Assembly: GCA_046484125.1 (NCBI GenBank)
Contig: JAWOBX010000036.1
Location: 226 to 64,225 of the forward strand
Origin: Dehalococcoidia bacterium
GTDB lineage: Bacteria; Chloroflexota; Dehalococcoidia; SZUA-161; SpSt-899
DNA length: 64,000 bases
Reading direction: 5' to 3'
Under the pieces are notes generated by a model, which did no database searches, was not told where the DNA came from, and saw only the letters and a list, made by a program, of their open reading frames with translations. Every line of letters starts with the position of its first letter. The stretch's first letter is position 1. Shown here one piece after another: positions 3,913 to 63,741 of the stretch. The position numbers and the translations under genes were made by a program.

Positions 3913-3936
3913 AAAACAGCGTTTCAAATACAAAGG
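3913..3936. repeat. Copy a of a recurring intergenic motif AAAACAGCGTTTCAAATA(C/T)AAA
   Basis: Near-identical copies at 31585-31608 and 37674-37696. Partial AAAACAGCG cores at 3993-4001, 4028-4036 (reverse) and 37561-37569. Confidence 0.5.
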
Positions 3937-3977
3937 AATTCACCCTGCGGACGTCTTGTGAAATTGGGAACAATCCG

Positions 3978-4036: not shown

Positions 4037-4109
4037 AGGGTTACTTGCAGGTATTGACATGCCTGCTTCATTACTGTAAGATACCCTGATTGCCTTCTGG
4101 GAAAGATTC

Positions 4110-4892: not shown

Positions 4893-4994
4893 AATGAAAT
4901 GTCGTTTACAGCCGCTAGATTATTATGGAATTGTAAATCAGCATATTTTGACTGAGTAGCAAGATGGGATAAAAATAATACTGGTGAAGAAAGA

Positions 4995-7397: not shown

Positions 7398-7425
7398 TAA
7401 GACTAATGTCGGCAAATGAAAAAAA

Positions 7426-7449
7426 GCACCCGTTTCGGGTGCTTTTTTT
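7426..7449 (+). terminator. Rho-independent terminator after the anti-sigma gene
   Basis: GCACCCG-TTT-CGGGTGC stem-loop followed by TTTTTTT. Confidence 0.7.
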
Positions 7450-7625
7450 ATGGGATTGAAATGATTTGTGGTGGGCTGAGGCTTATATATTTAGAAAGAT
7501 GATTACAGAATCAAAAGAGCGAAAAAATTGGCATTTGAATTATTCCGGGGAATAAGCGGCTTTTAATAATGTGGAGAGGATGATATCGGGGCAGGGTATT
7601 TCAGAAAAATTTCAGGAGGCAAACC

Positions 7626-10600
7626 ATGAGACAGCCAACAATTTTTAACAGGGTAATTTTCGCAATCATATCATGCTTGCTGGTGGTTTCGGTGTTCGGG
7701 ACGTTTCCGGTTATGCTGGCGGGGGCAAGTGGATTTAATACCGGGGACACAGTCAAAACAACCGATCTGCTGAATGTTCGAACAGGGCCGGGACTCAGCT
7801 ATGACGAAATCTCGGACCCTGATTATGCCGCCAACAACTGGTGCGCACCCGCAGGGGAGGAAGGTGTTGTTCTCGCCGGACCTTCCTACGCGGATGGATA
7901 TACCTGGTACAAAATTGATTTCGGCCCTGGATTGTATACCGGGTGGTCGTCTGATCATCGCCTCGTAAAGGTGGAGGCACAAACGTTTTCAGCCGGCATC
8001 GTCGATTATGTGCCTACCAGCATAACAGAGGTAGAGGCTGGTGATTCGGTGACCATTGGTGCGAGTTTCGTCAACACCGGTAATACCGCCTGGCAATTCG
8101 TAGCCGGGGCCACGGTGTGGGATTCCAATGGGAATCAGGTGGCCAATTACAGCGAGACTCTTTCCAGCGCGCTGCAGCCGGATGAGCAGCATACCGTTAC
8201 CTGGCGCCATCCGGTAACTACTGAAGGCGATTACTGGGTCCAGTTTGGGGTATGGAAAGACACCCCCTATATATCGGAGAATTTACTGGATAAAGCACCC
8301 AGTCCATCGCAAAAGCTTATTTCAGTAACAGAACCTCAAGTTGTAGATAATGCACCCCCTGTAATTGAGAATCTTTCTGCATATCCATCTTCCATAACCG
8401 AAGGCGAAAGTGTGACGATCTCATTCTCGGTGAGTGACAGCGGTGGAAGCGGCCTGAACCGGGCTGAGTTGTGGAAAAAGTTTGGCTCTGGTAACTGGGA
8501 AGAGGTTGATCATAAATATTTAAACGGAGACCAATCTGAAGGAAGTTTTACAGATATACCTCAATCGGCAGGTAACTTTCAGTATAGTCTTCACGTGGCC
8601 GACAATGCCGGGAATCTGGTCTCTGAAGATCGGCAGGTTGAAGTCGAAGCAGATGAACCAGAACCGACGGTTTCGCCTGTTCAACCGGACCCCGCGGATA
8701 TAATTCCACCTTCGGTTGATTACTTCAACATATCACCGACCGAGATATCACCGGGCGAAAGCGTTAATGTCGATTACACTGTCTCCGATTCAGGTAGCGG
8801 TCTTAAAACAATAGAACTCTGGAGAAAGCGCGAGGCAGGGAGCTGGGAAATAATAGACCTCACGGTTATCGATGGTACTGGCGATACTCACACAACCAGC
8901 TTTATTGATAGCCTGACTTCAAGTGGCACATTTTACTATGCGCTCAATGTTTTTGATAAAGATGGTAATCAAGTTTATGAGGAATACGGCACGTCGGTAC
9001 TTGTGGTTGAGAATGACCCAACTACGACGCCAACTCCCACACCAACTGAGCCATCACCCGAATTAAACCAGCCTCCCTATGTTCCTGAAAACCCTTTCCC
9101 CGCCGATGGCGAAAGCGGGATTAAAGTCAACTCAATCCTGAATTGGAATGGCGGAGATCCTGATGGTGATGCTGTTTTCTATGATGTTTACCTAGAAAAG
9201 GAAAACTCTTCCCCGGATAAACTGCTTGTGGAAAATCTCACACATACTAGTTTTGATCCCGAAAATCTTGAATATGACAGCCACTACTACTGGCGAGTGA
9301 AAGCAGAGGATACTAAAGGCAATGTGGCGGAAGGTCCTGTGTGGGATTTCTATACCGATTCCTGTCCAGTGAATATATCCGCCCAAATTGATTCTTATAT
9401 TCCTTCGGGTTTAACGGAGGTAGAGGCTGGTAATCCGGTGACCATTGGAGTGAGTTTCGCCAATACCGGTAATACTACCTGGCAATTCATAGCCGGAGCG
9501 ACGGTGTGGGATTCCAACGGGAACCAAGTGGCCAATTACAGCGAGACTCTTTCCAGCGCGCTGCAGCCGGATGAGCAGCATATCGTTACCTGGAGCCATC
9601 CGGTAACTGCTGAAGGTGATTACTGGGTTCAGTTTGGGGTATGGAAAGACACCCCATTTATAGCGGAGAATTTGCTGGATAAAGCCCCCAGTCCATCGCA
9701 AAAGCTTATTTCAGTAACCGAATCTCCTGTTGTAGATGATACCTCCCCTGTAATCGAGGATCTTTCTGTATACCCATCTTCCATAACCGAAGGTGAAAGT
9801 GTGACGATCAATTTCAGTCTCAGAGACCGCGGAGGCAGCGGGTTGAAACAAGTGGAGTTATGGAGGAGGCAAGATACGAGTGATTGGCAGGAAGTGAATC
9901 ATAAGAAGATTTCCGGGAACTATTATACCGGCACTTTCAGCGATACCCCGCCATCAGCGGGCACCTGGGAATACGGACTTCACGTATTGGACAACGCAGG
10001 TAACATTACCTATGAGGATCAGCCGTTAAGTGTTCTGGTGGAAGAACCGGAACGGACGCCTTCACCCACGCCTTCTTCTACTCCAACCCCGTCAACCCAT
10101 CCGTATCATACTGATTTTGATTTGCACAATATGTTTGGCTTTGACAATGGCTCGATAACCGGATCGGATATTGAGAGTTACATTTCAAGCACATACCCGA
10201 CCTCTCCCATGCTACAGGAGAAGGCAATCGGAGATGCGTTTATCAATGCCGGACAAGAGTACCAAGTGAACCCTGCATTTTTAGTTGCCACTGCTCAACA
10301 TGAAGGTGGTTTTGGCACGTTAGGCTGGGCCAGTTCCCATTACCACTGCCACAACACTATGGGTTGGTGTGTTAACCCTGATCACCCCCATCCGGATAGC
10401 TGCAACTGCTACGATAGCTGGTCAGATTGCATACAAACGACAGCAGAAAGAATAGCCAACGGACCGTACTATTACAGATATTCCCCGTCAAGAGAGACTG
10501 TGGACGAAATAAGAGACGTATATGCAGAACACAAGAATACCGATACTATAGTGCGATATATGAATGATCTGTACTGGTTTTCTCAGGTCGACGTAGATAT

Positions 10601-11990
10601 CACCAATTGGGGGCCGACGGAAATAACCGTCGAAGCACGAAAATCTGCCGATAACGATATCAAAGTCAGTTATGAGTTAATTGATAAGAATAACAAAGCT
10701 ATCGAAATACCCCATGTGGCACATGCGAATCCTCCGTCAGTCAATTTAAATGGTCAATCACTAACCTTAGGTTCGTCTAATTTAGTTTTTCTGCATATTT
10801 GTTTGATGCCTCAAAATAATAGTAATTTGGATGAAATTAATGACATACGATTAAGAATAGTATTTCAGGGAGAAAAGCTGCGTCGCGTATATTATTTGGA
10901 ACCCGGTTTTGACAAAATTCTAAACATTGTTAGTTCGGGATTTGATATTACTCGTGATGGCTACAGCTTTTCAAATAATTCGTTCAACAAGGGTAAATGT
11001 TACGGCATGGCTGCAACGAGCATACTTTATTTCAATGACGAACTGGCAAGGCCATCTGGTTTTAACACTACATATGCTCTCGATACTAACACCGCGGAAC
11101 CGGCTATTGATAGATATCAAGATGAGCCTTTTCTAAACAATATCGATGACAGATCCGCATTGTTCGAGGACAACAAACTAGATATGACGGAATATGCCGA
11201 ATTAAGACGAATTCTTGGTCAACGGGGACCAGTCATAGTTATCCTACACCAGGGAATACTCACCGGGCATCATGCGGTGGTCGCTTACAAGCTAATTGAA
11301 GAGGACAATAAATCATACATTGCAATATACGATCCAAACTGGCCGTATAAACCGGTACCTAGCAACATTAAAAACGCTTTCACTTATATTGAATATGATC
11401 ATCTGACCAATGAGCTTGAGTATGGCGACTATAACCGTTTCAAATTTATTGAGGCGCGGAAGGACCCTTGGTACCAGCGTATAGAAATATTCAGTCCGGC
11501 GGAGGTTAGAGTTCGCGATTCCCAGGGCAGAACTACGGGAATGATAAACGGTCAAATTTTAGAGGAAATACCTTTCTCTTGCTACGATAATGAAACTGAG
11601 ACAGTTACTGTTTACCACCCTGATGATACGTTTATGTACGAAGTCGCTGGTAATGATAACGGATATTATGGTTTGGAGATCACATCAACAGAATTTGGTA
11701 AGACAAAGACAATTACCCTCAATGATGTACCTACCACCGGTAATTCGTCTCATCTTTACTCTATAGACTGGAAGGAATTAACTGCCGACGGTCATGGTAT
11801 CACCGTTGAGATCGATTCTGACGGAGACGGTATATTTGAAGAGAAAAGTATTCCGAACAAGAAAAGTCTGACTGTCATAACAGATAAACATGTGCCGGCT
11901 GGCAAAGCTGACGACCGGTGGAGTAACTGGGGAATTGCCATTGTGATAATTGGCCTCGCCGCTGTTGGCTACGTCGTCTTAAGGTTATAG
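7626..11990 (+). CDS. Giant secreted, membrane-anchored multidomain protein: signal peptide, SH3b, two ~145-aa repeat modules (plus a related third Ig-like module), FN3, a glucosaminidase-like muramidase domain, a papain-like (C39_2/CHAP-like) Cys peptidase and a C-terminal transmembrane anchor
   Basis: N-terminal signal peptide, then an SH3b-like segment (LNVRTGPGLSY...GWSSDHRLVKV). An FN3-like segment (YWRVKAEDTKGN). ATAQHEGGFGT resembles the glucosaminidase LESGWG motif. GKCYGMAATS...GHHAVVAY...YDPNWPY resembles a Cys-His-Asp peptidase. The C-terminal hydrophobic helix is followed by RL. AGGAGG ribosome-binding site. Confidence 0.7.
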   Translation: MRQPTIFNRVIFAIISCLLVVSVFGTFPVMLAGASGFNTGDTVKTTDLLNVRTGPGLSYDEISDPDYAANNWCAPAGEEGVVLAGPSYADGYTWYKIDFGPGLYTGWSSDHRLVKVEAQTFSAGIVDYVPTSITEVEAGDSVTIGASFVNTGNTAWQFVAGATVWDSNGNQVANYSETLSSALQPDEQHTVTWRHPVTTEGDYWVQFGVWKDTPYISENLLDKAPSPSQKLISVTEPQVVDNAPPVIENLSAYPSSITEGESVTISFSVSDSGGSGLNRAELWKKFGSGNWEEVDHKYLNGDQSEGSFTDIPQSAGNFQYSLHVADNAGNLVSEDRQVEVEADEPEPTVSPVQPDPADIIPPSVDYFNISPTEISPGESVNVDYTVSDSGSGLKTIELWRKREAGSWEIIDLTVIDGTGDTHTTSFIDSLTSSGTFYYALNVFDKDGNQVYEEYGTSVLVVENDPTTTPTPTPTEPSPELNQPPYVPENPFPADGESGIKVNSILNWNGGDPDGDAVFYDVYLEKENSSPDKLLVENLTHTSFDPENLEYDSHYYWRVKAEDTKGNVAEGPVWDFYTDSCPVNISAQIDSYIPSGLTEVEAGNPVTIGVSFANTGNTTWQFIAGATVWDSNGNQVANYSETLSSALQPDEQHIVTWSHPVTAEGDYWVQFGVWKDTPFIAENLLDKAPSPSQKLISVTESPVVDDTSPVIEDLSVYPSSITEGESVTINFSLRDRGGSGLKQVELWRRQDTSDWQEVNHKKISGNYYTGTFSDTPPSAGTWEYGLHVLDNAGNITYEDQPLSVLVEEPERTPSPTPSSTPTPSTHPYHTDFDLHNMFGFDNGSITGSDIESYISSTYPTSPMLQEKAIGDAFINAGQEYQVNPAFLVATAQHEGGFGTLGWASSHYHCHNTMGWCVNPDHPHPDSCNCYDSWSDCIQTTAERIANGPYYYRYSPSRETVDEIRDVYAEHKNTDTIVRYMNDLYWFSQVDVDITNWGPTEITVEARKSADNDIKVSYELIDKNNKAIEIPHVAHANPPSVNLNGQSLTLGSSNLVFLHICLMPQNNSNLDEINDIRLRIVFQGEKLRRVYYLEPGFDKILNIVSSGFDITRDGYSFSNNSFNKGKCYGMAATSILYFNDELARPSGFNTTYALDTNTAEPAIDRYQDEPFLNNIDDRSALFEDNKLDMTEYAELRRILGQRGPVIVILHQGILTGHHAVVAYKLIEEDNKSYIAIYDPNWPYKPVPSNIKNAFTYIEYDHLTNELEYGDYNRFKFIEARKDPWYQRIEIFSPAEVRVRDSQGRTTGMINGQILEEIPFSCYDNETETVTVYHPDDTFMYEVAGNDNGYYGLEITSTEFGKTKTITLNDVPTTGNSSHLYSIDWKELTADGHGITVEIDSDGDGIFEEKSIPNKKSLTVITDKHVPAGKADDRWSNWGIAIVIIGLAAVGYVVLRL
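8024..8456 (+). repeat. Intragenic direct repeat, copy 1 (~433 bp), with very high nucleotide identity to copy 2
   Basis: Long identical runs, e.g. ggccaattacagcgagactctttccagcgcgctgcagccggatgagcagcata, occur in both copies. Copy offset is exactly 1390 bp. Confidence 0.8.
9414..9846 (+). repeat. Intragenic direct repeat, copy 2
   Basis: See copy 1. The encoded modules (AGIVDYVPTSITEVEAG... / AQIDSYIPSGLTEVEAG...) are near identical. Confidence 0.8.
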
Positions 11991-12089
11991 TAATATCCAC
12001 TGAAATGATTCTCCGTTACTAGTCGTTTTACTTAATAGAAGGGGCTGAATCTCTCGAACTGTCAGTCACTTTTCGGTAGGAGGTTAGAG

Positions 12090-38944: not shown

Positions 38945-39346
38945 CTATATATGCCTTTCAGCAAAATCGCCGGCCCAGGGGATTTTGTACCGCTGGCCCT
39001 GGTATGCCTTGACCATCAGGAGAATCCAGAGAACAAGCGACAACAGGCTTACAATCAAACCTAGTGGCCAGAAAACGATATTCAGGACGATCATCAGCAC
39101 GTGAAGCGGGGCAAATACCGCAATCGACTGCATGGCATGAAAACGAACATACTGGTCTTCCTTTTCTATCAAGATGAATATCAGGCCGGTGAGCCATCCA
39201 AGCACGTAGCATAACAACCCGGCTATATTGGGTTCCAGACTGGTCCCGGTTTTGGCTGGCGCACCGGAAGGACCCAAAGATGCTCCACACTGCCTGCAAA
39301 AGCCGCTGGTTTCGTCATTTTCGGCACCACATTTGCTGCAATACAT
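38945..39346 (-). CDS. Zinc-ribbon plus DUF4870-like small membrane protein
   Basis: N-terminal CxxC-N12-CxxC zinc ribbon (CSKCGAENDETSGFCRQCG). DUF4870-like transmembrane core (YVLGWLTGLIFILIEKEDQYVRFHAMQS). Confidence 0.6.
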   Translation of the reverse strand: MYCSKCGAENDETSGFCRQCGASLGPSGAPAKTGTSLEPNIAGLLCYVLGWLTGLIFILIEKEDQYVRFHAMQSIAVFAPLHVLMIVLNIVFWPLGLIVSLLSLVLWILLMVKAYQGQRYKIPWAGDFAERHI

Positions 39347-49812: not shown

Positions 49813-50106
49813 TTGGAAGGCAATTTGAGGGATATTCGTATACACGATAGTTCCCAGACGGGTGCGCTCAACCGCCGGCTTGGCGGGGAGGTGCGTGAAT
49901 TGGGCCGAAAGCCCGTACGATTGCCACTAGCCGCGAGGGGAGATGGTCATGATCCTCAGGTGAAACCAGCGATAATGAAGGTCGAAGAGTCCGCACCAGC
50001 GGAAAACCCGGCGTCGGCAAGGCAGGCGGATCCGGAGATAATAGCGGATATGGTATATCGCTTGATGAAGAAAGACCTGGTGCTGGAACGAGAGCGGCGG
50101 CGCTAG
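49813..50106 (+). CDS. Hypothetical small Arg-rich protein whose C-terminus (IADMVYRLMKKDLVLERERRR) mimics the C-terminus of the tape-measure candidate
   Basis: ORF fills the gap between the chaperone candidate and tube 2. C-terminal similarity to 'IARQVYAIIKRRLAVEKERSGYR' at 52750-52824. Confidence 0.3.
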   Translation: MEGNLRDIRIHDSSQTGALNRRLGGEVRELGRKPVRLPLAARGDGHDPQVKPAIMKVEESAPAENPASARQADPEIIADMVYRLMKKDLVLERERRR

Positions 50107-53636: not shown

Positions 53637-55370
53637 ATGGGATCGACAACACAACTGGCGCCGAGAATATACCTGAAATTCGATGGCACCGAAGCTTCCG
53701 AGCGTGTTACCGATGCCATTATCTTCATAGAGGTTGATGACAGCCTCACGCTTCCGGATATGTTCACGATTCACTTGAGGGATCCTAATCTCGAATGGAT
53801 CGATGACGATACCTTCTCGCTCGGTACGCCGGTGGAGATATCAGCCAAGGCCGAGGGTGGCTCAGAGGTCAAGTTGCTCTCAGGAGAGATAACCGGCATA
53901 GAGCCGCAACTGAGACAGGGCATCGGGCCTACCCTGATATTGCGCGGCTATGACAAATCCCACCGCCTCAACAGGGATAAAAAAACCCAGTCGTTTCTGC
54001 AGATGACCGATAGCGATATAGCCAAAAAGGTGGCTCGGAATGCCGGACTAAGAAGCCAGGTGGACTCCACCAGCGAAGTATATGATTATGTCCTGCAGCA
54101 TAATCAGACAGACTGGGAATTCCTTATGGCGCAAGCCGGCAGGGTTGGGTTCCGGGTGCTGGTCAAGGATGACACCCTTCATTTTCAGCAATTTCCCGAT
54201 ACAACCGAAAACACCCCCGAGCTGGAGTGGGCAGTTGACCTGCTGCAATTCGACGCTCGCCTGACTACTGCCCGGCAGGTATCCGAAGTGATCGTTCAGG
54301 GTTGGGACCCCGAAAGGCAGCAGCAGATCGTGGGCCGGGCTACGCAAGCAAACGATATGCCGGATATTGGAGAGAGCCACCAGGGTGGTGAGGCCTCGCA
54401 GCAGGCTTTCGGAGGTTCTGCCAGGGAGATCATAGTCGACCGGCCGGTCAGCACCCAGGCGGAAGCGGATATGCTGGCTCAGGCGATATGCGATGAAATA
54501 GGCCAGGGATTTGTAGAAGCCGAATGCGTGTGCTTTGGCAACCCGGGTGTACAGGCAGGCGCGATGATCACAATGAATGGCCTTGGAGACCGCTTTTCTG
54601 GAAGCTATCGGGTGACTCATGCCTCGCACCGCTACGATGAATCGGGCTACAGGACCGAGTTCACGGTTGGAGGACGGCATGCCTCGACGATTGGTGAATT
54701 ACTGTATAACATGAACGATAGCGGATTCCGCCAGGGTCCGGTGCTCGGTGTTGTAACCAACAATGAAGATCCCGATGATGAGTGCAGGGTGAAGGTGAAG
54801 ATACCTTCAATCAAGGACAGCGAGGAAAGCGCCTGGGCCAGGCTGATCGCTGCCGGTGCCGGGAAGGACCGGGGATTGCAGTGGCTGCCCGAGGTAAATG
54901 ACGAGGTTCTGGTTGTATTCGAGAATAACGATATTAACCGTCCGCTGGTGATCGGCGGCCTCTGGAGTGCCAGGAATACACCTCCGTTACCATCCAGCGG
55001 ATGTCTCGACTCCGGCAAGGTTAAAACCAGACAGATTGTTACTCGAAGCGGGACGAAGATCGTTCTGGAGGATGATGACAACATAATCACCATTTCGAAT
55101 CCGGATGAAAGCTATCATTTGAAGATCTCGGAAAAGGATACCAAAATAGAGATTATCTCCGGTGGTGACGTCTCCGTTGAGGCGCAACAGAACGCCACGG
55201 TTAAAACGCAGGGTGACGTGAATGTTGAGGCAACGGGAAATATTGCCGTAAAGGGCCAGCAGGTCGAGGTGAGCGCCAATACCAATGCCAAGATAACGGC
55301 GTCAGCAAACATGAACCTGGAAGCCTCAGGCATAATGACCATAAAGGGAGCACAGGTCAAGCTGAACTAG
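53637..55370 (+). CDS. VgrG/gpD-like central spike (Afp8-like)
   Basis: Phage late-control-D / gp27-like N-domain. C-terminal beta-helix repeats (VKTQGDVNVEATGNIAVKGQQVEVSANTNAKITASANMNLEASG). Confidence 0.85.
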   Translation: MGSTTQLAPRIYLKFDGTEASERVTDAIIFIEVDDSLTLPDMFTIHLRDPNLEWIDDDTFSLGTPVEISAKAEGGSEVKLLSGEITGIEPQLRQGIGPTLILRGYDKSHRLNRDKKTQSFLQMTDSDIAKKVARNAGLRSQVDSTSEVYDYVLQHNQTDWEFLMAQAGRVGFRVLVKDDTLHFQQFPDTTENTPELEWAVDLLQFDARLTTARQVSEVIVQGWDPERQQQIVGRATQANDMPDIGESHQGGEASQQAFGGSAREIIVDRPVSTQAEADMLAQAICDEIGQGFVEAECVCFGNPGVQAGAMITMNGLGDRFSGSYRVTHASHRYDESGYRTEFTVGGRHASTIGELLYNMNDSGFRQGPVLGVVTNNEDPDDECRVKVKIPSIKDSEESAWARLIAAGAGKDRGLQWLPEVNDEVLVVFENNDINRPLVIGGLWSARNTPPLPSSGCLDSGKVKTRQIVTRSGTKIVLEDDDNIITISNPDESYHLKISEKDTKIEIISGGDVSVEAQQNATVKTQGDVNVEATGNIAVKGQQVEVSANTNAKITASANMNLEASGIMTIKGAQVKLN

Positions 55371-55456
55371 GGAATCTCGGAACGGGTGGTGATTCCGGGG
55401 GGTGGGGTGTACCGCCGGAATACATGAAATGGAAAAGGTCAATGGAGTGTTAAGTC

Positions 55457-55861
55457 ATGAACGATGATGATATCATAAAGGATGTTCTGGGAACGGGTTT
55501 ACATTTCCCGCTGGCGGTCGACGCCCGTGGCGGGATAGCAATGGTTCGTGGCGAACAGGATATCGACGAATCGATTCGAACCATATTGAGCACTGCCCGG
55601 GGCGAACGGCCTATGCGCCCCATGTTCGGCTCGCGCGTTCACGAGCTGGTCTTTGCCCCCAATAACGCCACCACCTCAGGTCTTATGCAGCAGTATGTGG
55701 AAGAAGCACTTGGCTGGTGGGAACCGCGCATAGAAGTGCTTGACGTCGATGTGAGCGCCGACCCCGATGATACCAGCCGCATCCTGGTGAACATTCTCTA
55801 CAAGGTGAAAGCTACCAGCGACAAGCGTACCCTGGTATACCCATTCTATCTCTCAGGTTGA
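55457..55861 (+). CDS. Baseplate wedge protein, gp25/GPW family (Afp9-like)
   Basis: Classic gp25 motif (DIDESIRTILSTARGERPMRPMFGSRVHELVF). Confidence 0.9.
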   Translation: MNDDDIIKDVLGTGLHFPLAVDARGGIAMVRGEQDIDESIRTILSTARGERPMRPMFGSRVHELVFAPNNATTSGLMQQYVEEALGWWEPRIEVLDVDVSADPDDTSRILVNILYKVKATSDKRTLVYPFYLSG

Positions 55862-55880
55862 GGTTGCCAAGGAGGAGACA

Positions 55881-57854
55881 ATGGCACTGCCGGCACCGAA
55901 TTTGGACGATCGAAAATTTCAGGACCTGGTCCGTGAAGCCAGGGCGAGGATACCGCGCTATTGCCCCGAATGGACGGATCACAATTTGAGTGATCCCGGT
56001 ATAACCTTGATCGAGCTCTTCGCCTGGATGGTGGATGTTCTCCTCTACAGAGTGAACAGGGTACCGGAAAAGACCCATATCAAATTCATGGAAATGATGG
56101 GAATCAAGCTGGAACCACCACAGCCCGCCAGAGCCGATGTGACCTTTCGCCTGTCCGCGCCTCAACCGGAGGCGATAACTGTTCCCCGTGGAACCGAGGT
56201 GGCCACTGTGCGAACGGAAACCCGTGACGCCATTAACTTCACAACCGATGAGGACTTGACCATAGTCCCCCCCGTGCTGACTCACGTTATGACTTCTCCT
56301 GATGGAAATGAATTCGAGGACAGTATGCCGGCGCTCAAAAACCCCGATCGACGGATAAGCATTTTCCAAAATCCTCCTCAGGAAAACAACGCGCTTTATC
56401 TGGGATTCGAAACCAATCTGCAGGCCCAGACGCTCGCACTGACTATAGAGAGCAATATCGAGGGTATCGGTGTTGACCCCAACAATCCTCCGCTGGCCTG
56501 GGAATTCTGGGATGGCCAGGAGGAAACCTGGGCTCCTCTCAAGTTGGAAACCGATACCACAGGCGGGCTGAATACCAATGGACGTGTTAGTCTGCATGTT
56601 CCATATGCATGTGCCATGAAAGCGATAAACGGTGAGTATGCCTGCTGGGTCAGGTGCCGTGCTGTTGCTCCACAACAAGGACAGCGGCCGTATTCCACTT
56701 CGCCCGAGGTAGCCAGTATAACTCCGGAGGCCGTCGGGGGCACCGCCCGAGTCTTGCACGCCACAAGAATAGACAACGAGATTCTGGGAAGGAGTGACGG
56801 AACTTCCGGTCAGACTTTCCACCTCCAGAATACCCCCGTCCTTGAGAGGGAAGAGGGGGAAACTATCGAGGTGGAGACGGATATTCCGGGTCAATTTGAA
56901 CCCTGGCAAGAGGTTGATGACTTATCGGGTTCCGGTCCCGATGACCGGCATTTTACCTGTGACAGTGTCACCGGAGAGATACAGTTCGGAGTTTCCATAA
57001 GGGAACCATCGGGTCAGGAGCGGTGGTATGGAATGATTCCGCCAAGTAGCCGTCAGGTCAGGTTCACAAGCTATCGATACGGCGGCGGTACCATCGGCAA
57101 CGTGGGACCCGGCACCATCACGGTGCTTAAATCCTCCATTCCGTATATAGCCTCAGTCAATAATATAGGACCGGCCACGGGCGGTACGGAGCCCGAAAGC
57201 ATCGAACGGGCCAAGATGCGGGCACGACAGGTTATCAAAGCCCGGACGAGAGCGGTTACCGCTGATGATTTTGAATATCTGGCGTGTGAGGCTTCACCTA
57301 TGATAGCCAGGGCGAAATGTCTCACAGCAGGTTCAACCGTGGCGAGCCAGACTCTGCCACCGGGAATGGTGATGCTGCTTCTGGTTCCTTTCGTCTCCGA
57401 TACAGGCGCCCCAATACCTTTGGAGCAACTGGGACTGACGAAGAAGCTCAGAGAGCAGGTTGAGTACTATCTGAATGAGAGGAAGTTGCTGGGCACACGA
57501 ATGGAGATCGCTGAACCCAGGTACACTCCTGTATCTATAGAGGCGAGAATTAAAGGAAAGCCCGGAACCGATTTCACGCTCGTAGCAGCCGGAATCGAAA
57601 GAGCCCTGTATCGTTATATTAATCCTGTCCGGGGAGGGGTGGACAGCAAAGGCTGGCCATTCGGTCGAGGAGTATCACCGGCTGAAGTTTACTCGGCGAT
57701 TCAGGAAGCCGGCGATATCGACTTCATACGTGAGGCGAAAGTCTTCATGGTAGATCCGGATACCGGGGAGCGAGACGAGATCACTGACGAGATGGTTCTG
57801 TCGGCTGAGAGCGTATTGTGCTCTCACCAGCATAAAGTGACGGTGGAGGAGTGA
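55881..57854 (+). CDS. Baseplate J/gp6-like protein (Afp11-like)
   Basis: Baseplate_J N-terminal signature (IPRYCPEWTDHNLSDPGITLIELFAWMVD). Size of about 650 aa. Confidence 0.85.
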   Translation: MALPAPNLDDRKFQDLVREARARIPRYCPEWTDHNLSDPGITLIELFAWMVDVLLYRVNRVPEKTHIKFMEMMGIKLEPPQPARADVTFRLSAPQPEAITVPRGTEVATVRTETRDAINFTTDEDLTIVPPVLTHVMTSPDGNEFEDSMPALKNPDRRISIFQNPPQENNALYLGFETNLQAQTLALTIESNIEGIGVDPNNPPLAWEFWDGQEETWAPLKLETDTTGGLNTNGRVSLHVPYACAMKAINGEYACWVRCRAVAPQQGQRPYSTSPEVASITPEAVGGTARVLHATRIDNEILGRSDGTSGQTFHLQNTPVLEREEGETIEVETDIPGQFEPWQEVDDLSGSGPDDRHFTCDSVTGEIQFGVSIREPSGQERWYGMIPPSSRQVRFTSYRYGGGTIGNVGPGTITVLKSSIPYIASVNNIGPATGGTEPESIERAKMRARQVIKARTRAVTADDFEYLACEASPMIARAKCLTAGSTVASQTLPPGMVMLLLVPFVSDTGAPIPLEQLGLTKKLREQVEYYLNERKLLGTRMEIAEPRYTPVSIEARIKGKPGTDFTLVAAGIERALYRYINPVRGGVDSKGWPFGRGVSPAEVYSAIQEAGDIDFIREAKVFMVDPDTGERDEITDEMVLSAESVLCSHQHKVTVEE

Positions 57855-57864
57855 AGGGGGAAAG

Positions 57865-58458
57865 ATGACGGTTTCAGGCAATCATGACCAGCCGGAGCTT
57901 CAAAGCAGTTATACTCAATACCTGCCCGGGACGTACCGTCAGGATGAGTTTCTGGGCCGCTTTCTGCTGATATTCGAGAGCGTGCTTGGCCCTGTAGAAA
58001 ATCAGGTGGATAACCTGCATATGTACTTTGATCCGCTCACTGCTCCGCGTGAGCTGCTCCCATGGTTGGGCTTGTGGGTGGACCTGGTCCTGGACCAGAA
58101 TTGGCCTGAGGAACCCCGCCGGAAGCTGGTTAAGTCAGCAGCCTGGCTCTACAGGTGGAGGGGTACCAGGCGGGGGTTGCGCGAGTATCTGCGAATATAT
58201 ACCGGCACAAGCCCGGAGATCACTGAATACATCCCCGGCATGAAACTCGGTAAGGAAACAGAGCTGGGAGTTAATACACGCCTCGGCAGTTCGGGTGGTG
58301 GCTATCATTTCACTGTCACGTTGCACCTGGAGGGGGTGAGCCATGTCAAAACCGAAATCATTCGAGCCATCATTGATTCCCAGAAACCCGCCCACACAGT
58401 ATACACACTTCAAATAAGAGGTAATAGCCCGGAAAGGGAGGAGAACCATGGAGCTTGA
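57865..58458 (+). CDS. Baseplate protein, P2 gpI/gp7-like (Afp12-like)
   Basis: Tail_P2_I-like motifs (LLPWLGLWVDL..., AAWLYRWRGTRRGLREYL). Confidence 0.75.
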   Translation: MTVSGNHDQPELQSSYTQYLPGTYRQDEFLGRFLLIFESVLGPVENQVDNLHMYFDPLTAPRELLPWLGLWVDLVLDQNWPEEPRRKLVKSAAWLYRWRGTRRGLREYLRIYTGTSPEITEYIPGMKLGKETELGVNTRLGSSGGGYHFTVTLHLEGVSHVKTEIIRAIIDSQKPAHTVYTLQIRGNSPEREENHGA

Positions 58459-59668
58459 TGACATCACCCGTTTCCAGCTTAAGAGGGAGAATCCGTTCGA
58501 AGGACTGGTAATTGACGCCGAAACCTGGAGGGACGCTCACCAGTATCATCGAGATAGTCAGCGGCTTCATGTTCTCACTTTTCACCGAACCGGAATAGTG
58601 GGCGGTCTGGAGGTTGCGGCAAGCGATCCGCCGAGCCTCACCGTGATCATCCAGCCTGGAATAGGCATTGATCCCCAGGGGAATACCATCGTCATAGCCG
58701 ATACACAGAAGTACAAGATCCAGGCTCGCAAAAAGGGTACCATCTATCTTGTAATACTTTTCAGGGAAATCCCTGGCGGTCCCTTTCAGCCCGCTGAAGG
58801 TGGACAACCGACTCGAATCGTCGAAGGGTATCGGATAGAGGAGAGATCCGAGTTGCCCCCGGAGCCGCACCTGGAACTGGCGCGTATCGATTTTGACCCG
58901 GAAAATGATGCTATCAGGGAGCCTCAAACCCCATCAAAACCCGGGAAAAACGAGATAGACTATCGTTTCCGGCAGAGCGCCGCCGCTGTTGCCCCGGCGG
59001 CACAGGCAGCAGTCCCGGCGCCACAGCAACAGGCTGCGCCGCCACCATCAAATACGGATAAGCCAAAACCAGCCTCTGAACCTCCGGCCAGGAACCGTAC
59101 AACCCTCACAATAGGGCATGCCGTACTTGGAGACGCGGGCAAAGACCTGCATTTGAAAGGTCTTCAGAACCTCGCTCGGGAGATCAACCAGCGTTACGAT
59201 ATGGAGATCAAGATTGAGAAAGCCAGCTCTCTGGCCAAGAACCTGGGTAAATATCAGGTCCTGTATCTCACCGGAAATGGCAATTTTGAGCTCAGCGATG
59301 AAGAACAATCGTCGCTCAGCAAGTTTGTTGAATCCGGCGGAATGGTTTTCGGTGAAGGATGCTCTGAGGGTGAGGCCCAATCCAGGGGAGCGAAGGAATT
59401 CGGCCTGGCATTCAACAAGATAGCGGGACAATTTAAAAGCAAACTTGAAAATGTTCAGCGCGGCCACCCCCTGCTTTCATCCGCCCACATATTCTCCTCT
59501 GTTCCGCAGGGAGCCGGACCGGGCATGCTTCTTGAGGGGGGGCGCATGGTCTACAGCGGCAGCGACTATGGATGCGCCTGGCAGGGAGGCTACCAGGATG
59601 TTCCGCTTGAGAGGGAAGTGATTCGAACCGCCATCGAGATGGCGGTAAATATCATGTCTTATCGCTAG
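58448..59668 (+). CDS. eCIS-associated protein of unknown function (406 aa) occupying the position of the tail fiber. N-terminal baseplate-proximal region, Pro/Ala/Gln linker, C-terminal globular domain
   Basis: Overlaps the upstream gene by 11 nt (operonic). No fiber-like repeats. The C-terminal domain is unassigned. Confidence 0.5.
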   Translation: MELDDITRFQLKRENPFEGLVIDAETWRDAHQYHRDSQRLHVLTFHRTGIVGGLEVAASDPPSLTVIIQPGIGIDPQGNTIVIADTQKYKIQARKKGTIYLVILFREIPGGPFQPAEGGQPTRIVEGYRIEERSELPPEPHLELARIDFDPENDAIREPQTPSKPGKNEIDYRFRQSAAAVAPAAQAAVPAPQQQAAPPPSNTDKPKPASEPPARNRTTLTIGHAVLGDAGKDLHLKGLQNLAREINQRYDMEIKIEKASSLAKNLGKYQVLYLTGNGNFELSDEEQSSLSKFVESGGMVFGEGCSEGEAQSRGAKEFGLAFNKIAGQFKSKLENVQRGHPLLSSAHIFSSVPQGAGPGMLLEGGRMVYSGSDYGCAWQGGYQDVPLEREVIRTAIEMAVNIMSYR

Positions 59669-59792
59669 TGTATTGTCCCTAACGCTTCTATACAAATGTT
59701 TCGCAATGTTCTTTTTAACTCATTGCTTCACTGGAAGGGTTTGTTACTCGGTGAGCGAATTCGGATTCCGAGTTCGCTCACCGAGTAACAAC
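59664..59792. repeat. Intergenic repeat element copy 2 (conserved core 59664-59735) followed by a 47-bp near-perfect palindrome (59743-59789)
   Basis: The core is about 80% identical to 22843-22912. The palindrome GTTACTCGGTGAGCGAATTCGGA / TCCGAGTTCGCTCACCGAGTAAC has a single mismatch. Confidence 0.6.
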
Positions 59793-59935
59793 ACAGGGTG
59801 GCGGGGCGGGAAATGTAGTAAGTTCATATAATTGATGTTATCAGATAATCTAAAGTCCGGTTATTTACGGGACGATCTAGTATGAACCGAGCTGTTGATG
59901 TTTTCGATTTTACAATTCAATCCGGGAGTTAGAGT

Positions 59936-61882
59936 ATGCCAGAAAGAACAGAATTAATGGTAGAGCCCTCTTCGGTGACCATGTTGCCGGGTGAGACCGT
60001 CGAGATTAAGGCCAACATCCGGAACTTGAGCCAGACGGTGGATCAGCTTGTCATTACCGTGGAGGGTATAGACCCCACCTGGTACACGATACCTGTCTCC
60101 AGTGTGGCGCTCTTCCCGAATGACCAGGATAGCTTATCCATCTCTTTACATCCCCCCAGAGCCGCCGAGAGATCCGCGGGGACGTATACTCTCACTATCA
60201 AAGTCACTTCACAGGAGGATCCATCCCACGTAGCTACTGCCGAGGTAGCCGTTGAACTCAAAGCGGTCCTCGAAGTGGAAGTGGGAATTACACCGGAAAA
60301 CCTGGCTGGAAGGAAAGGAACATATCAGGTAACTATTAACAATCCGGGAGATCAGCCGGCCACTGTTCAGCTCGTAGCGAGCGACTTTAAAAACAGGCTG
60401 CGCTACGCCTTCAACATGAGCCGGCTTACGGTTGAGGGGGGCGCCCGTTCGGGTGCCAGCCTTGAGGTCGGACTGCGATGGCTGGCTATGCTTGGCGGTG
60501 AGAAAACTTTTGAGTTTAAGGTGGCAGCTATGCCGGCGGATGAAATACCTTCTCCGGCTTTCTGCCCTTACTGTGGAAAGGGGATTAAACCCAAAAACCT
60601 GGCCTCACGGGTATTCTGTCCGCACTGCAGCCAGAATTTGAGCGAAAAAGCGAAGGTTGCTACAGCTAACTTCATTCGAACGCCTTTAATAAAAGGACTG
60701 CCGAAGATCAGTTTCCCATGGTTTACCAGAAAACCTGTTGTTCAAAACTTTGAGGCTGCCACTGAGGACAAAAGGGAATTCATACTCAGTTGGTCCGTAA
60801 AGCGGGCCAAGGCCGTTATGCTCGGAACCGAAAGCGTGGATAATGAAGGGGAAAAGTCGGTATTCCCCGACGAGCCCGCCACATATACGCTTACGGCGAG
60901 TAATAAAGGAAAGTCCGTAAGCCAGTCTGTACAGGTCCATCCGCTTCCGGTTCCAAAGGAGACATCGGAGAGAATAAGGGCCTCGCTTTCTCCCGCTGAG
61001 CTTCAGGTTCACGCCGGAACCGTACCCGGCCAGGCTACCCTGCACCTGCAGAACATGGGGGAAATAGTCGACAAATTCCTGATTGATATAGCGGGCCTTG
61101 ATACTTCATGGTACAGCACATCAGCCTCAAGCGTGGCTTTGATGCCTCAGGCCTCAGACCAGGTACAGATCAGTTTCCAGCCCCCCAAAAAAGAGGGAGT
61201 AAGGGCCGGGAAGTATCCGTATGTCATCCGTGTTCGCTCCGAAAGTGTTCCGGAAGATATTACCGCGGTCACCGGAGAGCTTCACATACTCCCGCTGCCT
61301 GAATTCAAGCTTCAGGTCCGTCCGTTCCGGGTAACCTGCCGGAAGAAGGGAACGTTCCGTATTGGTCTGAGCAATACCGGTGTAAGCGATATCAACTTCA
61401 ATCTGGAAGCCACGGATATGGAGGAGGGCTGCAGGTTCCGTTTTGAGGACTCGGCGCCCGCCGTCGCCGCCTGGAAGGCCGCTGAGGTTCCGATGAGGAC
61501 CAAACCGAAGCGTGGCTGGTTTGTGGGTGAGAAGAAAGCCTATAACGTTACCGTCACCGCGAGTGACGGAACCAATTCGCAGACAGGCAACTGTGAACTG
61601 ACTCATAAACCGCTGTTCGGTTCCTGGAAAACGGTTTTCAAGATAATCCGGGCTGTGGTGGTAATCATCATCATAGTCGTTATCGTTTATCTGGCGATAC
61701 ACTGGGGTGGGGGGTGGAGCCAGTTAACCAGCGACCCCGGCAGATGGGCAGAGGAACTGACGGATGAGTGGCCTCCATGGAAGGGCCCGTTTGACGAGAT
61801 CGCGGGTGAGGAAAGCACACATGAAGAAATTCCCAGGCCTGAGCTCGAGGAACCACGGCCCGATTTGCGCGACGGGCCATAG
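59936..61882 (+). CDS. Membrane-anchored protein with two tandem beta-sandwich repeat modules, a central CxxC...CxxC zinc ribbon and a transmembrane helix near the C-terminus
   Basis: Internal duplication (GIDPTWYTIPVSSVALFPNDQDSLSIS / GLDTSWYSTSASSVALMPQASDQVQISF). Zinc ribbon CPYCGKG...CPHCSQN. Transmembrane helix AVVVIIIIVVIVYLAI. Confidence 0.6.
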   Translation: MPERTELMVEPSSVTMLPGETVEIKANIRNLSQTVDQLVITVEGIDPTWYTIPVSSVALFPNDQDSLSISLHPPRAAERSAGTYTLTIKVTSQEDPSHVATAEVAVELKAVLEVEVGITPENLAGRKGTYQVTINNPGDQPATVQLVASDFKNRLRYAFNMSRLTVEGGARSGASLEVGLRWLAMLGGEKTFEFKVAAMPADEIPSPAFCPYCGKGIKPKNLASRVFCPHCSQNLSEKAKVATANFIRTPLIKGLPKISFPWFTRKPVVQNFEAATEDKREFILSWSVKRAKAVMLGTESVDNEGEKSVFPDEPATYTLTASNKGKSVSQSVQVHPLPVPKETSERIRASLSPAELQVHAGTVPGQATLHLQNMGEIVDKFLIDIAGLDTSWYSTSASSVALMPQASDQVQISFQPPKKEGVRAGKYPYVIRVRSESVPEDITAVTGELHILPLPEFKLQVRPFRVTCRKKGTFRIGLSNTGVSDINFNLEATDMEEGCRFRFEDSAPAVAAWKAAEVPMRTKPKRGWFVGEKKAYNVTVTASDGTNSQTGNCELTHKPLFGSWKTVFKIIRAVVVIIIIVVIVYLAIHWGGGWSQLTSDPGRWAEELTDEWPPWKGPFDEIAGEESTHEEIPRPELEEPRPDLRDGP

Positions 61883-61906
61883 CCCGAAAGAAGGAGGTAA
61901 ACTGAA

Positions 61907-62803
61907 ATGCAGAGGCTTTTTTCATTAGCGATGATTACACTGCTGGTAACTCTTCTGGCGGTCTCTTTCGCGGGTATCACCGCCGGCCAGGCCAGCGCCC
62001 AGGCCGGACCGAATATCAGATTAAGTCCAACATCGGGATTCTGCTCGGTCACAATCGAGGGAACAGGCTTTTCGGCCTGGACTGGAATCACCGTATACTG
62101 GGATGAAAAAGAGGTCCCGGCAATTATCGATACAGATCAGGAGACCAATTTCACAGCCATAATAACGGTGCCGACCCAGACAAGTCCGGGCGATCATGAA
62201 GTAAGAGTAGTAGACGGATATGGTGATGGGGATAGAGCTATATTCAGAGTCATCGATATGACCGGACCTCAGGGGATACCGGGTGTATCGGTCACAGGGC
62301 CGGCCGGGGAGGATGGTATCAACTGCTGGGATCTCAATGAAAACGGCCAGCCCGATGATGAGGAGGATATCAACGGTGACGGTGTTGTCGATGTACTGGA
62401 TTGCCGGGGACCGGAGGGTCCTCAGGGGCCTCCGGGAGAATCGACGGTGATAGAAGGAGCCCAGGGGCCAGCGGGGCCGGAAGGACCACCAGGGGAGCCG
62501 GGTGAGGATGGACTCGGCATTATCTGGCGTGGTGAATGGAATCCGGATGAAGAATATCTGGTTAATCACGCGGTTAACTACGAAGGAAGTGCATATATCT
62601 CCATTGCTCCATCGAGTGGCGCAGTTCCTGCTGAAGCTGGTGACAAGTGGGACCTGATGGTGGTAAAGGGTGAGGCCGGTGAGGTTGGAGAGGCCGGGGA
62701 AGCTGGGGGTGGGGGGGCCGTTGGCACAACGGGGTTCTTCCTGGGTCTTGCAGCCTTGATATTGATAGGAGCGGGTAAGGTGAAGGGCTGGATATTCGGG
62801 TAA
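61907..62803 (+). CDS. Secreted collagen-like (Gly-X-Y) repeat protein with a C-terminal Gly-rich/hydrophobic anchor
   Basis: Signal peptide. Runs of GPQGIPG / GPEGPQGPPGE / GPAGPEGPPGEPGEDG. C-terminus GGGGAVGTTGFFLGLAALILIGAGKVKGWIFG. Confidence 0.65.
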   Translation: MQRLFSLAMITLLVTLLAVSFAGITAGQASAQAGPNIRLSPTSGFCSVTIEGTGFSAWTGITVYWDEKEVPAIIDTDQETNFTAIITVPTQTSPGDHEVRVVDGYGDGDRAIFRVIDMTGPQGIPGVSVTGPAGEDGINCWDLNENGQPDDEEDINGDGVVDVLDCRGPEGPQGPPGESTVIEGAQGPAGPEGPPGEPGEDGLGIIWRGEWNPDEEYLVNHAVNYEGSAYISIAPSSGAVPAEAGDKWDLMVVKGEAGEVGEAGEAGGGGAVGTTGFFLGLAALILIGAGKVKGWIFG

Positions 62804-62996
62804 AATCCGAATCATCTTGGCGGAGTTAAAAAGGGCCATTGGCTGAAATGCATTTACAGGAACCAAACCCGAGCGAGAGGATGCCGTGTGCATCCAGATT
62901 ATACGCGGTTTTGGGGTGAAACCCACAACATAACTTGCGAAGACCGGCCATCCCCAGCTATAATTAATGATTGTCACGCCAGTGTGACCGGCTTAG

Positions 62997-63070
62997 TGGG
63001 GATTCGTCTAGTGGTAGGACGCGTGACTCTGGATCACGAGGCTCAGGTTCGAATCCTGGATCCCCAGCCA
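62997..63070 (+). tRNA. tRNA-Gln (anticodon CTG)
   Basis: Manually folded cloverleaf. U1-A72 acceptor stem with G73 discriminator and encoded CCA. D-arm GTCT/GGAC. Anticodon stem CGTGA/TCACG with loop CTCTGGA (U33, CTG at 34-36). T-arm with TTCGAAT loop. Confidence 0.8.
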
Positions 63071-63396
63071 TCATAAAGCCCCCCGCATCCCCTACCACGC
63101 CCACTATTCCTGATCGCTGCGACCGAGAAAACACATACGCCTTCATACCCTGATGAACTCCAGCAAACAATCCTTCCGGCATCTTTCTTGTGGCTCCGGA
63201 CTGACATATCAACGGCAGGCTGAACCGCTTAAGGCTAAACGGGTGTTAATTTGACACGTGTCAAATTATTTAATCAGGTAACCGAAGAACCTCCCTTCCG
63301 GTTACATTTTAGATGAGTGAATACGGACTACTCTTAATTATCCACATATAATTTTCAGTTACACATAATAGCTTGTTATGTTTCCCTGGTTTTTAG

Positions 63397-63741
63397 CTAC
63401 AAAGACATTGACAATCGGAGACCATTGTTGACGGTCTCCATAAGATGGGATGGCAGCTTACCAATTTTCTCAGTGAGAAATGCTTTATCTACAGTAATTA
63501 CCTGAGATACATTTACTACCGAATCTTTTTGCAATCCGCTTTCTTTGGTTTTAACGAATACATTGCCAGGAGCTTTAGCCAGATTTAGCTTTGAGGTTAT
63601 GACCGCAGCCATTACGGTATTTAAACGACTGCGGTTGAAATCATCGGATTGGATAACCAGTATTGGTCTACGATAACCGGGTTCTGAACCGCTGGGCTTT
63701 CTGAGCGAGGCCCACCAGATTTCGCCTCGCTTGATTACCAT
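63397..63741 (-). CDS. mazF: MazF/PemK/Kid-family endoribonuclease toxin
   Basis: RGEIWWASLRKPSGSEPGYRRPILVIQSDDFNRS...VMAAVITSK...GLQKDSVVNVSQVITVDKAFL matches the PemK/MazF core. Confidence 0.85.
   Translation of the reverse strand: MVIKRGEIWWASLRKPSGSEPGYRRPILVIQSDDFNRSRLNTVMAAVITSKLNLAKAPGNVFVKTKESGLQKDSVVNVSQVITVDKAFLTEKIGKLPSHLMETVNNGLRLSMSL

Follow-up and report, generated by a model that had tools for sequence, protein, structure and literature searches.

A candidate membrane-docking module, CisA-like but built from unrelated parts, in the contractile injection system locus of a Dehalococcoidia bacterium

The contractile injection systems (CIS) of Streptomyces are cytoplasmic, cause cell death and require the membrane protein CisA (PMC10066040, PMC12237407). 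A study on Roseiflexus published in 2026 pointed out that the membrane mechanism may differ in Chloroflexota, in which close cisA homologues are missing (PMC12998442). How a CIS of this kind could meet a membrane is the question raised by a single CIS operon on the plus strand (approximately positions 40171 to 62803) of the 64-kb stretch of DNA analysed here, in the following termed the window, which comprises nearly all of one 64,231-bp contig of a Dehalococcoidia metagenome-assembled genome (MAG). Judging from domain content, homology, predicted topology features and gene order, we regard it as moderately probable that the three genes following the wedge genes of this operon, which encode proteins of 406, 648 and 298 amino acids, represent a docking module of a membrane-targeted CIS that resembles CisA in function without being homologous to it. 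New in this case would be a CisA-like function performed by unrelated parts.

The structural proteins of the window CIS were found to be closely related to those of Streptomyces. Along its entire length the sheath protein matched the CIS sheaths of S. coelicolor and S. venezuelae (8bky/9gtp, E 6e-167; 8bl4, E 4.5e-164), residues 1-655 of Cis11 were aligned to residues 1-647 of the Streptomyces protein (9gtp_1K, E 7e-159) and Cis12 matched its Streptomyces counterpart 9gtp_E (E 2.2e-20), whereas the matches to the systems of Anabaena and Algoriphagus and to PVC and AFP were far weaker. Based on the close homology of sheath, Cis11 and Cis12 the window CIS is presumed to belong to the Streptomyces-type ‘cytoplasmic’ lineage, subtype IId. 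No domain of an Afp13-type (adenovirus-like) tail fibre was detected among the 20 operon proteins scanned with Pfam and NCBIfam, and a protein with a Cis13-like N-terminal domain is encoded instead.

This 406-aa protein, termed the adaptor here, had been listed as a protein without assignment in an earlier reading of the same sequence (the original prediction). It is composed of an N-terminal baseplate domain similar to receptor-binding proteins (RBP), TssK and Cis19 (residues 1-175), a variable Pro/Ala linker (residues 176-215) and a flavodoxin/ThuA-like DUF4159 head (residues 216-406). Residues 10-160 matched positions 3-161 of the 392 model positions of the NCBIfam family CIS13_fam (NF053767) with 48.5 bits; since this is far below the equivalog cut-off of 370 bits, the adaptor has a domain in common with this family and is not a member of it. 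Residues 236-405 were assigned to Pfam DUF4159 (PF13709) with 61.8 bits at a cut-off of 25.9. Both domains are conserved in an alignment of 34 homologues (54-71% identity), in which the linker varies in length, and the head in particular is highly conserved (54-69% identity, invariant motifs). The protein has neither a signal peptide nor a transmembrane (TM) helix, and its gene overlaps cis12 by 11 nt. An interpretation of DUF4159 as an active amidotransferase was considered and dropped: a Gly-x-Cys elbow and a His-Pro motif are present in the close family, and in the broad alignment the Cys falls below the 90% conservation threshold.

A profile of the adaptor alignment found the N-terminus of the Anabaena protein Cis19 (All3314, 7b5h_AA) with an E-value of 0.0034. 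In the AlphaFold2 (AF2) model of the adaptor (mean pLDDT 70) the head and the core of the N-terminal domain are confident. According to Foldseek the head resembles 4i66, the sole solved DUF4159 structure (E 9e-9, TM-score normalised to the target 0.72), as well as ThuA- and flavodoxin-like folds, and the N-terminal domain resembles TssK (5y0e, E 1e-4) and Cis19 (7b5h_AA); in a viral fold library the latter domain matched phage tail fibres and siphovirus receptor-binding proteins. The fibre position, which the original prediction had given to membrane-anchored accessory proteins, is therefore occupied by a soluble relative of fibre-like baseplate proteins.

Searching with the N-terminal domain alone retrieved 1368 cluster representatives (361 of them at E <= 1e-10) among 1.84 billion. 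Among 109 diverse representatives DUF4159 was present in 95, a domain-level match to CIS13_fam in 107 (none near the cut-off, best E 5e-32) and an N-terminal FHA domain in seven. Named members of the adaptor family stem from Dehalococcoidia, Anaerolineae, SAR202 and Thermomicrobiales. Judged by these sequences the fibre slot is occupied by a widespread and undescribed architecture, in which a putative fibre/RBP-type baseplate domain is combined with a conserved globular head in place of a shaft. 

The FHA domains were observed at the N-terminus of some of the proteins with the Cis13-like N-terminal domain (representatives P0309, P0325, P0330 and others), and also in Ig-TM proteins encoded after the adaptor in the related locus L037 (11224-15983). 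Such domains recall the TagH/Fha regulation of type VI secretion systems (T6SS) and YscD of the type III secretion system, and the fusions hint at a phospho-dependent control in some lineages. In the distant locus L036 (1397-12127) a 1449-aa protein at the position of Cis11 and a 1059-aa WD40 beta-propeller protein are encoded before Cis12, and a 708-aa protein carries three tandem copies of the Cis13-like N-terminal domain without DUF4159.

The 648-aa protein encoded after the adaptor consists, as the original prediction had described, of beta-sandwich repeats, a Zn ribbon and a TM helix. The AF2 model (pLDDT 85), supported by Pfam, contains five beta-sandwich domains (D1 to D5; residues 5-108, 115-200, 268-334, 347-451 and 457-557), the Zn ribbon (residues 205-240), a long helix corresponding to the TM helix (residues 564-590, nt 61625-61705), two short helices and a Trp-rich tail. 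D1-D2 and D4-D5 are paralogous and contain the most invariant motifs, ‘WYTLPVSSVALFPNDQD’ and ‘WYSRSASSIALMPQA’, and the Zn ribbon is restricted to one sub-clade of the homologues. The best Foldseek matches of the model were intracellular immunoglobulin (Ig)-like arrays of the ASH/Hydin type, to be read with the reservation that any tandem Ig array matches well. 

The open reading frame (ORF) of this putative Ig anchor cannot be extended upstream and its homologues align from residue 1; no signal peptide was detected, nor an N-terminal hydrophobic segment in 34 homologues. The single TM helix is flanked in these homologues by on average +2.65/-0.09 charges on the N-terminal and +1.21/-0.94 charges on the C-terminal side, and the outer tail, which comprises 28-35 aa in most of them, contains a conserved ‘WGGGW..LTS.P..W’ segment. 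Due to the lack of a signal peptide, the single TM helix and the charge bias of its flanks, the approximately 560 folded N-terminal residues are predicted to face the cytoplasm. A fusion of adaptor and anchor in the sense of a Rosetta stone was looked for among 150 representatives of the adaptor family and rejected, since none was fused to a TM helix or to domains of the Ig anchor: a borderline hydrophobic segment occurred in only five of them and none matched the hidden Markov model (HMM) of the anchor.

The third protein (298 aa) was confirmed as a collagen-like protein with a signal peptide and a hydrophobic C-terminal anchor. From the N-terminus onwards it consists of the signal peptide and a TIG domain, then of collagen repeats into which a dockerin-like Ca loop (Dockerin_1, E 0.09) is inserted, and of a small knob (CBM_5_12, a weak match, E 0.02), after which a Gly-rich segment leads to the TM helix and the basic ‘KVKGWIFG’ tail. 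No NCBIfam CTERM model indicating a sortase, exosortase or archaeosortase signal matched the C-terminal anchor. The anchor on the giant protein ending at 11990, which the original prediction had considered similar, turned out to be a generic C-terminal TM helix that is neither Gly-rich nor homologous. The homologues of the 298-aa protein share the signal peptide, an ‘ITLTPxSGF’ domain, collagen repeats, the TM helix and a tail of the ‘KIKKWIxG’ type; most of those in related loci lack the knob. 

Among the tail-fibre families of PHROG the best match of the 298-aa protein was phrog_5073 (E 1e-19), which covers the collagen repeats and the following small domain and whose score is inflated by the Gly-X-Y repeats; several weaker matches were restricted to the non-collagen part. 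In the sense of homology the statement of the original prediction that a tail-fibre gene is absent is thus wrong, given the Cis13/TssK/RBP-like adaptor and this tail-fibre-like protein. The similarity to collagen-like phage tail fibres (PHROG 5073 and related families) extends to the collagen repeats and the small domain behind them. Unlike these, however, the 298-aa protein is equipped with a Sec-type signal peptide and, at its C-terminus, with a TM anchor, which speak against its incorporation into a particle assembled in the cytoplasm.

Adaptor and anchor genes are linked by their persistence side by side in other genomes. The conserved order is Cis7, VgrG, (PAAR), gp25, Cis11, Cis12, adaptor, Ig anchor and collagen protein, and the succession of Cis12, the adaptor and a membrane protein with Ig domains and without signal peptide is kept across approximately 35 loci of Chloroflexota. 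A homologue of the Ig anchor is located directly after the adaptor in about 30 of the 33 adaptor genes with downstream sequence, and this adjacency spans DUF4159 identities from 69% down to approximately 30%, several classes of Chloroflexota and also modules detached from the CIS operon. In a complete genome (CP070645, L001) Cis12, adaptor, anchor and two collagen genes lie amid unrelated genes, in L003 the adaptor-anchor module is divergent to the CIS operon, and in L009, L012, L025, L026 and L034 the pair has no baseplate gene within 10 kb upstream. Two adaptors within CIS operons lack an adjacent anchor (L018 and L022); their MAGs carry a second module of adaptor, anchor and collagen gene on another contig (L012 and L020, respectively).

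Some MAGs were observed to contain two adaptor paralogues (L012/L018, L020/L022 and L021), one in the operon and the other beside anchor and/or collagen genes. In L021 the two copies are located at 3202-4392 and 10001-11155, the second being directly followed by a collagen-type gene.

In divergent lineages (adaptors 30-46% identical) the gene next to the adaptor encodes a protein starting with homologues of the Ig domains D1-D2 or D4-D5, likewise without signal peptide, followed by a TM helix at about residue 230-390 and then by extracellular domains. These ectodomains comprise six Big_7 domains in L035, Kre9_KNH, Big_7 and discoidin domains in L028 and a TIG domain in L038; the protein of L037 represents an FHA-Ig-TM form. 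In most Dehalococcoidia loci the gene of the Ig protein precedes homologues of the collagen protein, frequently two in tandem, and collagen/TIG genes accompany the short-tailed anchors, while none were found in L027, L028 and L032, whose anchors carry an ectodomain of their own. This distribution suggests that the extracellular part may be supplied either in cis, fused to the anchor, or in trans by the collagen protein.

Among the closest known counterparts of these components is CisA of S. coelicolor (SCO4242; PMC12237407, PMC10066040). CisA belongs to the same CIS lineage, its gene has the same position downstream of the baseplate genes, and like the 648-aa protein, for which this is a prediction, it crosses the membrane once and has its N-terminus in the cytoplasm; it has been proposed to contact the baseplate at Cis11 (PMC12237407). 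The S. coelicolor cluster furthermore lacks, as does the window, both PAAR and an Afp13-type fibre. However, CisA combines an N-terminus that is disordered and cytoplasmic with a periplasmic C-terminal domain of substrate-binding-like type and has no domains in common with the 648-aa protein, which is predicted to have five folded Ig domains in the cytoplasm and an outer tail of only 35-60 aa. The Streptomyces CIS lack, in addition, a soluble adaptor and a separate surface collagen protein. Judged by domain content only, no CisA homologue follows the baseplate genes in the window: a protein combining disordered N-terminus, TM helix and substrate-binding-like C-terminal domain was not found, and the 648-aa protein corresponds to CisA in position and predicted topology, not in domains. 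The anchors of the divergent lineages, with Ig domains, TM helix and ectodomain, have a CisA-like topology.

Further parallels are found in systems in which a baseplate is connected to a membrane. In the thylakoid-anchored CIS of Anabaena (PDB 7B5H; PMC8894136) Cis13 and Cis19, whose N-terminal domain matches that of the adaptor, are trimeric fibre-like proteins with baseplate-bound N-terminal domains, and Cis13 attaches the particle to a producer membrane. In contrast to the adaptor, which is soluble and carries a DUF4159 head while the TM helix resides on a separate protein, Anabaena Cis13 has its own TM helix after a triple-helical stalk. For TssK of the T6SS (PDB 5Y0E) the likeness concerns the fold of the N-terminal shoulder domain, in a weak match (the Foldseek E of 1e-4 given above) to a model of medium confidence; no similarity at the sequence level was detected and the adaptor has DUF4159 instead of the TssK head. 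TssK is a trimer derived from phage RBPs, the shoulder of which binds the wedge and the head of which binds the membrane complex, a principle that the adaptor would share. No homologues of TssJ, TssL or TssM were found among the scanned ORFs of the window (CIS operon and selected flanking ORFs). The haloarchaeal protein Hbor_38620 of a T6SS-like CIS, a putative anchor proposed to link Cis11/12/13 to the membrane, is by its description similar in being a membrane protein specific to its lineage, in having a cytoplasmic domain and in a presence that correlates with that of CIS clusters (PMC11566945). It differs from the 648-aa protein in having six TM helices, a cytoplasmic domain of about 150 aa and a gene upstream of the cluster.

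Taking together the RBP/TssK-type baseplate protein, the cytoplasm-facing anchor, the outer adhesin-like domains, the inside-acting CIS lineage and the position shared with CisA, docking at the membrane is the best supported explanation of the three genes. The adaptor, probably as a trimer, would bind to the periphery of the baseplate (Cis11/Cis12) via its RBP/TssK-like N-terminal domain and display the DUF4159 head on the flexible Pro/Ala linker. This head, or the baseplate itself, would engage the conserved Ig domains on the cytoplasmic side of the 648-aa protein, which is presumably kept in the cytoplasmic membrane by its single C-terminal helix. The particle would thus be brought baseplate-first to the producer's own membrane before firing, and the exported, membrane-anchored collagen/TIG protein would form the extracellular part that in the divergent lineages appears to be fused to the anchor. 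By analogy with the known systems, docking could be permanent as in the T6SS or transient as proposed for CisA, and its outcome could be self-lysis or injection into neighbouring cells. The original prediction had likewise suggested a CIS tethered at the membrane of the producer; its premise of a missing tail-fibre gene has to be given up, whereas the idea itself has gained from the homology to the Streptomyces CIS and from the persistent adjacency of adaptor and anchor, which go beyond the loose analogy it had drawn.

Several observations weigh against docking at the membrane. In bacteria, Ig-like domains of this type mostly lie outside the cell, and the N-in topology of the 648-aa protein was predicted from the lack of a signal peptide and from a charge bias that is moderate. 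The adaptor N-terminal domain gave modest fold matches with low TM-scores (E 1e-4 to 2e-3) from a model in which its pLDDT is partly below 50; these matches represent a lead, and we know of no function of DUF4159. The operon contains an eCIS_core/DUF4157 protein and a C70 protease as putative cargo, which are typical of extracellular CIS (eCIS). In the window the adaptor and anchor genes are separated by 268 nt, compared with approximately 45-80 nt in the relatives, and by a perfect hairpin that is unique in the window and not followed by a T-run. The hairpin looks like a window-specific insertion, either a palindromic element or an RNA processing/attenuation site, and the genes downstream of it may be differentially expressed. 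Finally, the related CIS of Chloroflexota and Deinococcota that have been imaged, those of Roseiflexus among others, float free in the cytoplasm (PMC12998442), so that any docking may be transient or stress-induced.

Part of this evidence would fit a free extracellular CIS, which we consider rather unlikely. Particles would be released by lysis, the adaptor would act as a short tail fibre that recognises a receptor of the target cell with its DUF4159 head, and the membrane proteins would stand outside the function of the particle or serve its release only. The RBP/tail-fibre-like fold of the N-terminal domain, the head-on-linker architecture typical of receptor-binding proteins, the DUF4157 and C70 cargo, the long, hairpin-containing gap in front of the anchor gene and the adaptors of L018 and L022 without adjacent anchor are in line with such a particle. 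The persistence of the adaptor-anchor pair apart from baseplate genes is not, and the DUF4159 head is highly conserved, whereas receptor-binding heads usually vary fast. Taking furthermore into account that the FHA-fused relatives point to a regulation in the cytoplasm and that the closest characterised relatives act within the producer (PMC10066040, PMC12998442), docking at the producer's membrane remains the preferred explanation.

A role as a regulatory or assembly scaffold appears less probable still. Here the Ig-array and DUF4159 proteins would control the assembly or firing of the baseplate, for instance by sequestering the adaptor or relaying a stress or phospho-signal, and would not hold the particle. 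This would agree with the FHA domains fused to the Cis13-like domain (7 of 109 representatives) and to the Ig-TM proteins of L037, with the unattached particles of Roseiflexus (PMC12998442) and with the finding that CisA is not part of purified Streptomyces particles and is required for firing and not for assembly (PMC12237407). However, the proteins of the window itself have no kinase, phosphatase or FHA domain according to the Pfam and NCBIfam scans, and the adhesin-like ectodomains of the divergent homologues better fit a structural link to the outside; moreover, such a scaffold overlaps with transient docking and is not clearly separable from it. That the proteins of 648 and 298 aa are ordinary Dehalococcoidia envelope proteins whose genes lie beside the operon by chance, as their generic Ig-like, TIG and collagen domains, a further large surface protein of the window ending in a TM helix and the nearby tRNA and locus end might suggest, is very improbable and largely refuted by the adjacency to the adaptor across deep divergence, several classes and detached modules, and by the lack of a signal peptide in the 648-aa protein.

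A bolder version of docking, which we put forward as a speculation with a small chance of being correct, is a ‘split tail fibre’ across the producer membrane: the surface collagen/TIG protein or the fused ectodomain would sense the target and relay the signal via the Ig anchor and the adaptor to a waiting CIS baseplate. If this were true, monoderm Chloroflexota would possess a contact-dependent, T6SS-like firing without a TssJLM complex. In any case, the locus and its approximately 35 relatives provide a concrete candidate for how the CisA-less CIS of the Streptomyces/Chloroflexota/Deinococcota lineage meet a membrane. No paper linking DUF4159 to CIS was found in the literature searched, and docking, if true, would supply the first functional context for this widespread domain. 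The candidate further suggests a repeated evolution of baseplate-to-membrane connectors from fibre or RBP modules.

At the tip of the spike the window differs from most of its relatives. As the original prediction had noted, no PAAR-like gene lies between spike and gp25, and the short gap (Table 1) contains no ORF. An HMM built from the 14 PAAR proteins encoded between vgrG and gp25 of related loci detected no PAAR among the 1190 six-frame ORFs (stop to stop, at least 30 aa) of the window, the best match (E 0.043) being antisense inside the sheath gene; the 14 single PAAR queries and the tip ORF of L013 found nothing in the window either. In 20 of 24 related loci the vgrG/gp25 junction contains a PAAR gene, in L013 another small Cys-rich ORF and in three none. 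PAAR-less junctions are those of the window, of its closest relative L005, which stems from another MAG and has an 80% identical spike with a gap of 23 nt behind it, and of the distant L038. The spike of the window retains the conserved terminal strand (‘...IKGAQVKLN’, in the C-terminal alignment with 15 relatives ‘...IKGAxVKLN’). Similarly, S. venezuelae has Cis10 (PAAR) and S. coelicolor does not (PMC10066040), and the whole of subtype IIb is devoid of afp10 (PMC6899500). From these comparisons the absence of PAAR from the cluster is real, inherited and sporadic in the lineage, and this sub-lineage, like S. coelicolor, has lost the cluster-encoded tip. Being sporadic, the absence is weakly informative, and in a survey that covers one 64-kb contig a PAAR encoded elsewhere in the genome is possible.

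In L013 (1084-1439) a 118-aa Cys/Pro-rich ORF replaces the canonical PAAR and follows a spike with a different C-terminus (‘...NNGALEVT’); it possibly represents another family of spike tips.

Table 1. Features of the window from the spike gene to the downstream end of the CIS locus.
Feature	Position	Strand	Evidence
VgrG-like spike (Cis8), 577 aa	53637..55370	+	NCBIfam VgrG_rel E 5.7e-118; Pfam Phage_base_V, Phage_GPD
Spike/gp25 intergenic gap, 86 nt	55371..55456	.	ORF list, tblastn map, PAAR HMM and phmmer, comparison with L005 and L006
gp25-like sheath initiator (Cis9)	55457..55861	+	Pfam GPW_gp25 E 1.2e-24
Baseplate J-like wedge protein (Cis11), 657 aa	55881..57854	+	Pfam Baseplate_J; full-length match to 9gtp_1K
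P2 gpI-like wedge protein (Cis12), 197 aa	57865..58458	+	Pfam Tail_P2_I; NCBIfam tail_TIGR02242 and CIS12_fam domain matches; 9gtp_E
Adaptor (Cis13N-DUF4159), 406 aa	58448..59668	+	CIS13_fam E 7e-13; DUF4159 E 8e-17
24-bp hairpin in adaptor/anchor gap	59741..59791	+	Inverted repeat; fold dG -52 kcal/mol, z -9.1
Tail-anchored Ig-array membrane protein, 648 aa	59936..61882	+	Pfam FixG_C, HYDIN-VesB Ig, DZR; AF2 pLDDT 85
Surface collagen-like protein, 298 aa	61907..62803	+	Pfam Collagen, TIG; PHROG tail-fibre families
tRNA-Gln(CTG), downstream end of locus	62997..63070	+	ARAGORN, Rfam

The operon begins with the genes for an AAA+ ATPase with a winged-helix N-terminus, the eCIS_core/DUF4157 protein, the Peptidase_C70 protein and a 489-aa protein, continues with a Pvc16_N cap protein, the sheath, a tube protein, a small Zn-ribbon protein, a DUF6760 protein and a 97-aa ORF, and then encodes a second tube protein, a 729-aa tape-measure-like protein and a CIS_tube+LysM protein before the VgrG-like spike, gp25, Cis11, Cis12 and the three genes discussed above. 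No PADLOC match was obtained, so that the adaptor/anchor/collagen module does not correspond to a known defence system; scans for promoters and terminators remained at the level of shuffled sequence and were uninformative with respect to transcription units. The Rfam scan of the window detected nothing besides the tRNA.

The Peptidase_C70 (AvrRpt2-like) protein (43722-44615) and the 489-aa protein (44539-46008) share their N-terminal approximately 95 aa (46% identity, E 1e-19), which probably function as a cargo-loading leader; the listed start of the 489-aa ORF, which overlaps the C70 gene, is probably too far upstream. The 97-aa ORF (49813-50106) between the DUF6760 and second tube genes resembles a truncated DUF4157 core (‘DIRIHD...’), and its terminal basic helix resembles the C-terminus of the tape-measure-like protein. 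Stretches matching the DUF4157 protein were observed at about the same place, just after the DUF6760 gene, in L011, L027 and L028.

Housekeeping genes and two Zn-ribbon/DUF4870 membrane proteins are located upstream of the operon. The latter are small proteins encoded on the minus strand (38945-39346, which also contains DUF4870, and 39430-39789) directly upstream of the ATPase gene, and similar genes with Zn ribbon and hydrophobic segment follow the Ig anchor in L014 and L015; they may represent a further CIS-associated membrane component. At the other end, the copies of an imperfect direct repeat of 18 nt (83% identity) flank the tRNA-Gln (62950-63077), and a gene for a PemK/MazF toxin lies beyond it (63397-63741, minus strand), which together could mark an integration site or the boundary of an island.

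The first part of the window (1-12000) has a G+C content of 43-48% compared with 50-55% elsewhere. It codes for a TPR/anti-sigma-like protein as well as for a surface protein of 1454 aa, which has a signal peptide, parts similar to CARDB, DUF7743 and glucosaminidase and, at its C-terminus, a TM helix. Since the cultured Dehalococcoides have been described as devoid of peptidoglycan, the glucosaminidase-like part of this protein is worth recording.

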